From the IMG/VR virus record IMGVR_UViG_3300042154_004306: a DNA stretch of 64,000 bases. One strand, written 5' to 3'. The notes beneath the pieces were generated by a model that saw nothing but the letters and a program-made list of their open reading frames with translations, had not been told where the DNA came from and searched no databases. This document shows positions 47,783-48,844 of this stretch, one piece after another (the first letter of the stretch is position 1; every line of letters starts with the position of its first letter). This DNA comes from a virus. Lineage: Duplodnaviria > Heunggongvirae > Uroviricota > Caudoviricetes. A program made the translations under genes and the position numbers.

Positions 47783-47995
47783 TTCATATAACGTTATCCA
47801 AATAAGCGCAGTTTAACTAAATTGATATTCACCTGTAGTTTAACGTGGTAAAACACAATGACGATTAAACCGCCTCATAAGACCAATAAAAATTGGAACA
47901 GCTTATGCGAGTTTAATAAGAGTAAGCAAGTTCGAGCCTTGCTGGGTGGACTAAAAATTGCGCTTATTTGGTGTTATGGCATCGTTTTAATGTGC
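47783..47995. repeat. large hairpin element (about 140-nt loop) with nested ATCGTTTTAATG hairpin, immediately upstream of the recombinase gene
   Basis: catataacgttatCCAAATAAGCGCAg (47783-) pairs with TTGCGCTTATTTGGtgttat (47951-); then ggc-atcgttttaatg-tgccataac. Confidence 0.55.
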
Positions 47996-48031
47996 CATAA
48001 CTATCATATATAAACAAGTACTCTTAAACCA

Positions 48032-48844
48032 TTGATAATGAACAAAAAGGGATTACCAACTTTAAAAATTTGTGAACAAAAACTTAATTACTTAAACTAC
48101 TCAGCTCGAACCAAGGAGACCTATTTAAGCCATATAAGTAGATTCATTACCTCACAGACTAAATCAGCAGCACACCTAAATTCAAAAGATTTCCAATCTT
48201 ACCTGGATAATCATAAATTCACTTCAGTTTCTCAACAAAACCAGGTTATTAACGCTATTAGATTTCTGTATAAGTACGGACTTGATAAGAAATACGATAA
48301 GGTATCGTTTAAAAGACCCAAGGCCGAAAAGAAACTGCCTAGGGTAATTGATGGTGAGTTTATTAAGAGCAAACTTGCTAAAATACAAAACATTAAGCAC
48401 AGAGCTATACTAACTCTAACCTACTCGGTTGGCCTAAGGGTGTCTGAAATCGTAAACTTAAAAATCGAGGACATTGATTCCAAACGAATGATAATTCACA
48501 TTAAAAATGCAAAGGGTCGAAAGGATAGGATAGTTCCGCTGTCATTAACTGTTTTAACTTTGCTAAGAGAATATTTTAAAGAGTATAAACCTTCAGATTA
48601 TCTTTTTAATGGGCAAAATTCTTCATTGTATTCAATACGAAGCTGTCAGCAAATTTATAAAAAATACATTGATGACGGGTCATCCATACATACACTAAGA
48701 CATTCCTCTTTCACTAACCTATTAGAATCAGGAACTGATTTAAGAATTATCCAAAAAATAGCAGGTCATTCCAGCTCTAAAACAACAGAAATTTACACAC
48801 ACGTCTCAAATAGTCTTTTAAGTAGGGTAAAACTTCCAATTTAA
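48032..48844 (+). CDS. tyrosine recombinase (phage integrase / XerCD family)
   Basis: 270 aa. Catalytic-domain motifs LRHSSFTNLLESGTDLRIIQKIAGHSSSKTTEIYTHV (R..H..R..Y). Confidence 0.8.
   Translation: MIMNKKGLPTLKICEQKLNYLNYSARTKETYLSHISRFITSQTKSAAHLNSKDFQSYLDNHKFTSVSQQNQVINAIRFLYKYGLDKKYDKVSFKRPKAEKKLPRVIDGEFIKSKLAKIQNIKHRAILTLTYSVGLRVSEIVNLKIEDIDSKRMIIHIKNAKGRKDRIVPLSLTVLTLLREYFKEYKPSDYLFNGQNSSLYSIRSCQQIYKKYIDDGSSIHTLRHSSFTNLLESGTDLRIIQKIAGHSSSKTTEIYTHVSNSLLSRVKLPI

Follow-up and report, generated by a model that had tools for sequence, protein, structure and literature searches.

A putative integron-like cassette array beside a minimal XerA/IntI-like recombinase gene in a large phage

What does a tyrosine recombinase act on when its gene closes a block of small, hairpin-separated genes in a large phage? 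The question is raised by a 64,000-nt stretch of viral DNA (IMG/VR record IMGVR_UViG_3300042154_004306, Caudoviricetes; the whole stretch is called the window here). Between 40 and 49 kb the window holds an AT-rich block (GC content 0.29–0.33, compared with ~0.40 elsewhere in the window), in which a 7.3-kb array of hairpins and small open reading frames (ORFs) on the + strand (40724–48001) has the gene for a tyrosine recombinase (48038–48844, +) at its 3′ end. We propose, with a probability of roughly three in four, that the block 40724–48844 is an integron-like cassette platform of a large phage, run by a minimal Xer/IntI-like recombinase. The proposal draws on comparison of sequences at several levels: the architecture of the sites, their covariation and strand bias, the anchoring of the arrays at the recombinase, the boundaries of the cassettes and their sharing between phages. 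The original prediction for this locus held that the recombinase acts on the repeat family and not on a host attB site, a view that is supported by the anchoring, the cassette termini, the sharing and the lack of a close bacterial homolog described below.

Hairpin family, recombinase and candidate attI

The array comprises ~20 units in a single orientation, delineated with a custom element finder and by eye. Each unit consists of a hairpin, which follows a TAAC, and a body that opens with GTTA and closes with TAAC; 18 bodies contain one small ORF each (49–138 aa), and the last body is ORF-less. The same hairpin layout recurs in nearly every intergenic region between 40.2 and 48.0 kb: TAAC, 4–5 nt of spacer (GGTTG and GTTTT being frequent), the first arm of a stem, a loop that varies from 11 to ~290 nt, the second arm, a single nucleotide (T) and GTTA. 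The finder returned 18 elements in 40700–48010, all on the + strand, and two in the remaining 56.7 kb, compared with 1.2 ± 0.9 in a control of 100 dinucleotide-preserving shuffles. A further element of 313 nt (43346–43658) was recognized by eye and brings the family to about 19 in the window. Outer boxes, inner stem and variable loop, the components of an attC-type architecture, are present in 18–19 of the window elements. Their sizes group near 48, 88, and 125 nt, with a tail to 300 nt.

For comparison we assembled 85 loci, five by exact-protein look-ups and 80 from IMG/VR, with recombinases 57–98% identical (individual loci are given by L numbers); the box variants CAAC/GTTG are present in two of them (L054 and L070). 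The minimal element is 48 nt long (40951–40998, +; further copies at 41529–41576 and 47313–47360) and has the loop TCGTTTTAATG. Among 19 distinct 48-nt members from many loci the loop is invariant and the stems vary by compensation: compensatory changes were found in 11 of the 12 stem pairs, 99.3% of the cells are paired, and the covariation score was reached by none of 500 shuffles. At the gathering threshold, Rfam identified six tRNAs and no other family in the whole window; a search of 47700–48100 at E ≤ 1 gave no match, and over the array the only matches were chance miRNA-like ones to the hairpins.

Two further observations concern the hairpins themselves. The 11-nt loop TCGTTTTAATG is found in the window at 40971, 41549, 47333, and 47982, is strictly strand-specific (92 copies on the + strand and none on the − strand in 1.34 Mb of loci) and caps either the inner stem of the 48-nt elements or ORF-less bodies of the form GTTAnnnnn-loop-nnnnnTAAC; one possibility is that it provides a priming or protein-binding signal on single-stranded cassettes. 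Some of the ~125-nt hairpins supply the beginning of an ORF: from a start codon inside them, the first ~25 residues are read in frame across the 3′ arm and the GTTA (43767–43911, 44954–45098, and 42923–43048 in the window; 313–649 in L001). The sequence MKDLKHIKRFNESEENLNISDV is common to the ORFs at 43829–44167 and 45016–45327, which diverge afterwards, and in L001 a lipoprotein signal peptide is encoded via a hairpin that in the window precedes an unrelated body and a 28-codon remnant.

The recombinase was originally described as an XerCD-family protein of 270 aa. It is a tyrosine recombinase, matching the Pfam families Phage_int_SAM_4 (E = 3.8e-11) and Phage_integrase (E = 3.2e-34), but its length is 268 aa from ATG 48038, the start in all homologs, and 270 aa are obtained only from the alternative TTG at 48032. 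The catalytic residues R134, H218, R221, H244, and Y253 and the Lys-rich hairpin KGRKDR (residues 159–164) are present and invariant in 31 homologs. All NCBIfam families scored below their cutoffs: XerA_Arch (NF040815, “tyrosine recombinase/integron integrase”) with 176 bits (cutoff 220), the integron integrase family TIGR02249 with 151 (265), XerD with 139 (330), and XerC with 135 (335). The best relatives in the PDB are XerA (4a8e, E = 2e-34) and the integron integrase IntI4/VchIntIA (2a3v). The match to TIGR02249 falls in two stretches, and the alignment with 2a3v is likewise in two pieces (query 20–179 and 211–264, chain 17–180 and 260–313), which leaves ~48 IntI residues unmatched where the I2 domain lies. 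An AlphaFold (AF2) model (pLDDT 78.8) has XerA as its nearest fold, followed by IntI, and Foldseek aligned 310 columns to IntI, compared with 268 query residues. The alignment gap, the TIGR02249 score and the Foldseek columns agree with the earlier remark that an integron-specific extra domain is not apparent. The protein is therefore XerA/IntI-like with an intact catalytic set and without the IntI-specific I2 domain, and as the I2 region is unmatched it is not an IntI by its defining domain. The literature ascribes the shift to single-stranded substrates to I2 (PMC7790495; PMC4792948). The family is very abundant and tightly conserved in metagenomes, where the best 120 cluster representatives are 76–98% identical and nearly all 266–268 aa long; homologs are found on phage contigs of up to 343–362 kb.

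Between the last ORF-bearing unit and the recombinase gene lies an attC-like element of 188 nt (47789–47976, +), delimited from the sequence, the finder (16 pairs, one G.T) and the fold. On the 5′ side it has TAAC (47789–47792), the spacer GTTAT (47793–47797) and an arm (47798–47813), followed by the variable loop; on the 3′ side an arm (47956–47971), a T and GTTA (47973–47976). Within the arms we readily identified the 14-bp inverted repeat noted before, CCAAATAAGCGCAG (47798–47811) and TTGCGCTTATTTGG (47958–47971), although it is located one base further left than implied at the time and consists of 13 Watson-Crick pairs and one G.T, with 146 nt enclosed. The 252-nt intergenic stretch before the recombinase folds at −64 kcal/mol (z = −4.3), and none of 200 shuffles folded as well. 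Two more details of the original prediction had to be revised: the element is not the largest of the array, as 43346–43658 exceeds it, and the ATCGTTTTAATG hairpin thought to be nested inside the large repeat directly follows it (47973–48001). The motif ATCGTTTTAATG has four exact copies in the window and a one-mismatch copy inside the recombinase gene, in total five matches with at most one mismatch where 0.67 are expected by chance.

This hairpin, GTTATGGCA-TCGTTTTAATG-TGCCATAAC (47973–48001, +), constitutes the ORF-less body. The same arrangement is found beside the recombinase in L021, L028, and L038, and within the arrays of L079, L014, L027, and L070. With a crossover at TAA|C on either side, the 188-nt hairpin and the ORF-less body would together form the last cassette of the array (47792–48000, +). 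A 51-aa ORF at 47858–48013 has no Pfam match and the loop of the 188-nt element has no homolog in the 85 loci; we therefore treat the element as non-coding.

The array stops at a defined junction. In about 70 aligned loci (recombinases 57–100% identical) the consensus TAAC-TATWATATAT(A/C) is located 36–52 nt before the ATG of the recombinase gene. In the window the junction TAAC is at 47998–48001, and the candidate attI, TAAC|TATCATATATAAAC (47998–48015, +), separates DNA that varies between phages on its left from conserved DNA on its right. Homology of L001, L006, L007, L008, and L058 to the window, as detected by blastn, starts at 47996–47998; L006 is ~90% identical to the window over 6 kb downstream, yet unrelated upstream of the TAAC. 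The junction thus appears to behave as expected of an attI-type insertion point, and on this comparison we regard it as a putative attI. A metagenome scan with the attI-to-ATG sequence returned solely a twin of L001.

The hairpins are concentrated on the same side of the gene in other phages. Thirty-three loci offer 10 kb of sequence on either side; their hairpins number 258 before the recombinase (upstream) and 28 after it (downstream), and the density climbs towards the gene, with 55 in the last kilobase. Additional arrays were observed at other positions. A second hairpin array is present 7–8 kb downstream of the recombinase in L010 (18274–20559) and L060 (8947–10886), and a second recombinase near these secondary arrays was not found within the fetched loci. 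Two published genomes of huge phages, L169 (LR756500, an uncultured phage of 462 kb; 12541–16317) and L170 (LR745206, 635 kb; 11108–12917), contain the same kind of hairpin/cassette arrays, with no recombinase homolog found within 12 kb of either. The L169 array ends in ...GTATTGTTGCTAAC|ATAAATATATAAAT, and the next gene is ClpP-like; this resembles a leftover attI from which the integrase has disappeared.

Strand polarity, cassette ends and cassettes shared between phages

The elements were chosen by Watson-Crick pairs only, a strand-neutral rule, and nevertheless show a clear strand bias: non-Watson-Crick stem positions are G.T on the + strand in 568 cases and on the − strand in 43. In 390 of 428 elements the lower folding energy belongs to the + strand (on average −29.0 kcal/mol, compared with −23.2 kcal/mol for the − strand). 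This folding-selected strand is the coding (sense) strand, and all cassette ORFs run towards the candidate attI and the recombinase. The source of the asymmetry is the internal loop, whose two sides measure 4–5 nt and 1 nt. The putative cut AA|C on the + strand would lie in the 5′ arm of the hairpin, which corresponds to the cleavage position in the recombined bottom strand of attC.

The ends of the bodies carry a signature of their own. The three nucleotides after the GTTA of one element pair perfectly with the three before the TAAC of the next in 71% of 379 adjacent pairs, compared with 8% across the same element and 7% in random pairs. The complementarity runs for at least 10 nt at 65–80% per position, and position 7 is a conserved G.T in 69%; in the window every body in 40724–48001 has ends complementary at 10–13 of 14 positions. 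Inverted termini of its own, GTTAnnn...nnnTAAC, thus mark every segment with an ORF, a classic feature of integron cassettes that requires exchange within the 4-nt core. Where the arrays meet the conserved sequence, the junction reads TAAC+TAT in every case, never TAACG+TAT, and the variable flanks stay with the body, so that the crossover maps within TAAC; the exact cut would, as in integrons, be TAA|C.

Breaks in gene order between related loci indicate what moves. The upstream hairpin is conserved with the body in all nine informative cases and the downstream hairpin differs in nine out of ten; four of the linkage cases are independent and involve long, distinctive hairpins (79–118 nt). The transfer unit is therefore the hairpin with its downstream body. 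One such cassette (44648–44956, +), made up of a 124-nt TAAC-to-GTTA hairpin and a 49-aa ORF (44791–44940), is 100% identical to positions 2136–2444 of L079, a locus whose recombinase is only ~70% identical to that of the window in DNA and 60% in protein. The identical stretch is bounded by ATAAC|GG to the left and by CCTAACG| to the right, with ATAACG alone common at the breakpoints. In total, five independent cassettes are 86–100% identical in DNA (four of them 92–100%) between phages with recombinase genes 68–71% identical. L008 and L016 have 100% identical blocks in swapped order, and L008 and L009 have identical recombinases and proximal cassettes with different distal arrays.

The relation of ORFs to the elements is not uniform. 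ORFs cross elements at the GTTA in 218 of 465 and at the TAAC in 87 of 465, and often begin within the loop; the TAA of TAAC is a stop codon in 78 elements.

Proposed mechanism, competing readings and surroundings

In the mechanism that we propose, each intergenic hairpin would be an attC-like site, with TAAC/GTTA as the outer R pair and the stem as inner L, and a cassette would begin with the C of one TAAC and finish with the TAA of the following one (hairpin, GTTAnnn, ORF, nnnTAA). In a circularized cassette both ends could pair over at least 14 bp, which would complete the site. The 5′ end of the recombinase gene is ~40 nt from the last TAAC, and the enzyme would, in analogy to integrons, cut TAA|C on the folded sense strand. 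Either the candidate attI (TAAC|TATWATATAT) or a further hairpin would be the partner in the exchange of this strand, leading to insertion, excision and reshuffling of cassettes. Read from the recombinase outwards, the layout is that of a classical integron: attI marks the start of the array, and transcription of the integrase leads away from it. The recombinase as catalyst, single-stranded DNA as substrate and the exact position of the cut are what we infer here.

Several points weigh against the proposed platform. The pattern of the finder was derived from this window and the loci were picked by recombinase homology. The linkage test at breaks in gene order depends on few independent events. 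The TAAC boundary is crossed by ORFs in 87 of 465 elements, although some of these cases are probably false elements or over-extended ORFs. The hairpin at 42923–43048 is common to L001 (313–448) with both neighboring bodies different, which together with ORF starts inside loops implies that exchange also takes place on the GTTA side or by homologous recombination between similar hairpins; the latter probably contributes to the shuffling. There are arrays with no adjoining recombinase (L169, L170, and the secondary arrays of L010 and L060). I2 is absent, though studies of integrons regard it as the adaptation to folded single-stranded sites (PMC7790495; PMC4792948). The G.T wobbles on the sense strand would fit a structure acting in mRNA equally well. 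Finally, an insensitive search of the IMG/VR assemblies for the circular junction of the cassette 44648–44956 gave no match, a result that is uninformative because assemblies would lose 309-nt circles.

The competing explanation that fares best, which we nonetheless consider unlikely, assigns the hairpins a role in regulation or RNA processing within a hyperplastic region, similar to the PeSL promoter-terminator cassettes; genes would be shuffled by homologous recombination between these repeats, the recombinase being there by coincidence or in another role. T4-type phages do shuffle small ORFs that are flanked by repeated promoter and stem-loop motifs (PMC2839356; PMC4122927). The elements of the window are co-oriented with transcription and it is the sense strand that is selected to fold, some hairpins contain start codons, and the many near-identical copies of the 48-nt hairpin could serve homologous exchange. 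However, the other AT-rich blocks of small ORFs in the window are devoid of elements, T-runs after the hairpins are absent, and sigma-70-like promoter matches number 46 compared with 54.6 ± 7 in shuffles, in a scan that leaves out Bacteroidota-type promoters. In ~70 loci the arrays terminate at a single fixed motif next to the recombinase. The variable 3–10 nt beyond GTTA and TAAC segregate with the body and not with the adjacent hairpin, which confines crossovers to the 4-nt core, and identical cassettes in divergent phages have only ~5 nt in common with their neighbors at the breakpoints.

Somewhat less probable again is an ordinary integrase that places the phage, or the whole AT-rich island, into an attB of a host or another phage, with the array as a passenger. 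The nearest annotated phage homologs (36–40% identity) are indeed called integrases, in Cellulophaga and Polaribacter phages, and, relative to the RNA-ligase genes, the array and recombinase of the window are on the other side from those of L001/L007, so that the platform itself may move. On the other hand, prophage copies were not seen: a scan of 185,579 bacterial and archaeal species genomes (one genome per species) yielded no full-length homolog above 50% identity, the best full-length match being at 50% and the only closer one a 66% fragment on a 2-kb contig of a metagenome-assembled genome. There is thus no sign of lysogeny in a scan that was made by recombinase, without a direct attB search using the site. 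A tRNA, tRNA fragment or other tRNA-like sequence was not found beside the recombinase gene or at the site, and the contigs are phages of 100–360 kb with lytic-type replication genes. An attP model also leaves unexplained why variation to the left of the TAAC is near-universal with the cassette-end consensus kept. In Cellulophaga phage Ingeline_1, the only one of these annotated phages examined, an array upstream of the integrase is absent. Its locus (L166) does contain a GTTAG...CTAAC inverted repeat, TTACGTGTTAG-N13-CTAACACGTAA (5880–5925), with the same GTTA/TAAC core ~100 nt upstream of the 39%-identical integrase gene; this repeat may serve a related enzyme as a conventional double-stranded site.

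The least probable reading, a Xer-type resolvase of phage genome multimers or a DNA invertase with a single site near its gene, can draw on the best sequence and structure matches to archaeal XerA and on the 9-11-9 inverted repeat adjoining the gene (47973–48001), but is opposed by the absence of that repeat from most loci, the lack of a conserved dif-like double-stranded site beside the gene, the NCBIfam XerA score below cutoff (176 versus 220), repeats that are all direct with no inverted segments seen between related loci, and the cassette signatures, which it does not explain.

The surroundings of the platform were also inspected. At its distal end the array is truncated: positions 40700–40727 (+) comprise only the 3′ half of a hairpin (TTAGCCACATTACTTATACACTTT, then GTTA), the 5′ half is missing, and the body of this first unit extends over 40724–40954 (+). 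An intact counterpart of the half-hairpin is found in L027 (~7130–7255). The only cassette ORF in the window with a recognizable function encodes YopX (41895–42284). At the proximal end the recombinase had been described as the last gene of the AT-rich block; its position at the 3′ side is correct, but a 60-aa ORF (48902–49084, +) and a strong terminator-like hairpin (49117–49134, +) still follow before the GC content recovers. This ORF and terminator close a module that accompanies the recombinase only in the nearest relatives (L001, L006, L007, and L058); more distant loci lack it. We considered the 60-aa ORF as a general partner of the recombinase and rejected this, as its conservation is limited to the closest relatives. 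The module of attI, recombinase and 60-aa ORF (window 47998–49072) has 84–98% identity with those four loci and is located on opposite sides of RNA-ligase/cREC-like genes in different phages (window 39202–40672 compared with L001 2753–5434), so that either the platform or its surroundings have been rearranged.

The description of the genome as T4-like holds for its phage topoisomerase II, RNA ligase, and helicase genes, which are T4-type; it is only approximate, however, since the topoisomerase is closest (55–56%) to uncultured phages of 630–640 kb. A megablast search of 38–52 kb of the window against GenBank phages gave no match. The carriers of the arrays are large, mostly uncultured phages with Bacteroidota as probable hosts, judging from the nearest phage and bacterial relatives only. 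Six tRNA genes (Ser, Lys, Trp, Val, Met, and Asp; 23573–23658 and 27714–28571) are present in the window, five of them clustered, and together with two RNA-ligase genes (30408–31484 and 39202–40275) suggest a tRNA-repair or anti-defense theme. A second AT-rich block, ~10 kb downstream of the recombinase, contains a solitary cassette-like unit (58335–58565) with one small ORF and 24-nt terminal inverted repeats, GTTATAAGAAGTAAAATTAAAAAT and ATTTTTAATTTTATTTTTTATAAC, that are 92% complementary; it is preceded by TATAAC...TGTTATAA, and a convincing inner stem is absent.

Comparison with integrons and related systems

We lean, with reservations, towards regarding the system as a previously unrecognized class of integron, widespread in large phages and characterized by a minimal XerA-like recombinase without I2, coding-strand hairpins and a pool of small cassettes shared among phages, with sister systems beside short recombinases in chromosomes of Bacteroidota, Nitrospirota, and Firmicutes. 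A prior description was not found in the openly searchable literature, subscription journals being outside this coverage.

With classical integrons the locus shares an array that adjoins the 5′ end of a tyrosine recombinase from the Xer/IntI branch, and imperfect hairpins with AAC...GTT outer boxes, inner L stems and loop size classes (here ~48, 88, and 125 nt). Stop codons often fall within the TAAC box, the end of a cassette is complementary to its beginning, as for circular intermediates, and the cassettes are promoterless, mostly ORFan and common to otherwise divergent genomes. In contrast to classical integrons, the phage recombinase lacks I2 and is ~48 residues shorter there than VchIntIA. 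The hairpin precedes its ORF in the phage cassette and the ORFs point towards attI; as they run towards attI and the integrase, outward expression of the Pc type is impossible. The coding strand is the one selected to fold in the phage, and the asymmetry is provided by an internal loop of 4–5 versus 1 nt, whereas attC uses extrahelical bases. The carrier of the phage system is a large phage of lytic type. If the proposal is true, attC/attI cassette logic exists without I2, which is regarded as the key innovation for single-stranded substrates, and with reversed strand and ORF polarity, and the origin of integrons from Xer-like enzymes becomes directly testable. Site-specific recombination of folded hairpins would then be independent of the IntI domain and phages would own a dedicated device for gene capture; as an enzyme of 268 aa able to insert hairpin-tagged DNA at a short site, the recombinase could also serve as a tool.

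Canonical attC sites, CALINs and a few integrons of bacterial type have been reported in phage genomes with IntegronFinder/HattCI, where they were read as fragments of bacterial integrons and tested with the bacterial IntI1 (Qi et al., 2023; PMC9892861). Those phage CALINs resemble the present arrays in their attC-like sites and small groups of cassettes, carried by virulent phages (a Polaribacter phage among them), and in methyltransferase cassettes (here in L002). They differ in that a dedicated phage-encoded recombinase, an attI and a large array were not described there (PMC9892861). Integron finders that require the IntI domain probably miss the arrays described here.

PeSL systems (Arbiol 2010; Comeau 2014) are similar in that they involve small ORFan genes, hyperplastic regions of large lytic phages and flanking stem-loops, and minicircle intermediates have been proposed for them (PMC2839356; PMC4122927). 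PeSLs, however, combine a promoter with a terminator, are scattered through many regions and change places by homologous recombination. The present locus shows no promoter signal, has one array that is anchored at a recombinase gene, and keeps its crossovers within a 4-nt core. The turnover of ORFan islands in large phages has so far been ascribed mainly to homologous or illegitimate recombination. A phage-encoded site-specific platform, if real, would provide a direct mechanism for this turnover and would explain the passage of accessory genes, plausibly for host takeover or anti-defense, between phages that are only ~70% identical.

XerA (PDB 4a8e, 5hxy), the closest solved relative of the recombinase, matches it in its compact two-domain size and in its catalytic residues. 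It acts on one double-stranded dif site per chromosome, in contrast to the phage protein with its ~20 hairpin sites.

Also comparable to the phage system are short bacterial recombinases (NF040815), such as those of Desulfitobacterium sp. Sab5 and Flavobacterium cheonanense, which have a 40–50% identical core and no I2, and whose neighboring TAAC...GTTA hairpin arrays obey the same flank-complementarity rule. In the Desulfitobacterium sp. Sab5 chromosome (L102, 8001–16330) and in L088, L089, L129, L139, and L163 the recombinase scores above the NF040815 cutoff and the array follows on the same strand. The bacterial hairpins have the form TAAC-1nt-stem...stem-5nt-GTTA and are 58–128 nt long. 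Among 80 genome loci, 16 contain at least three elements. These look like integron-type arrays with short recombinases, one of them in a Firmicute. They differ from the phage system in an extra N-terminal domain of ~80–100 aa, in a recombinase gene that points towards the array, and in ORFs that precede their hairpins, as in classical integrons.

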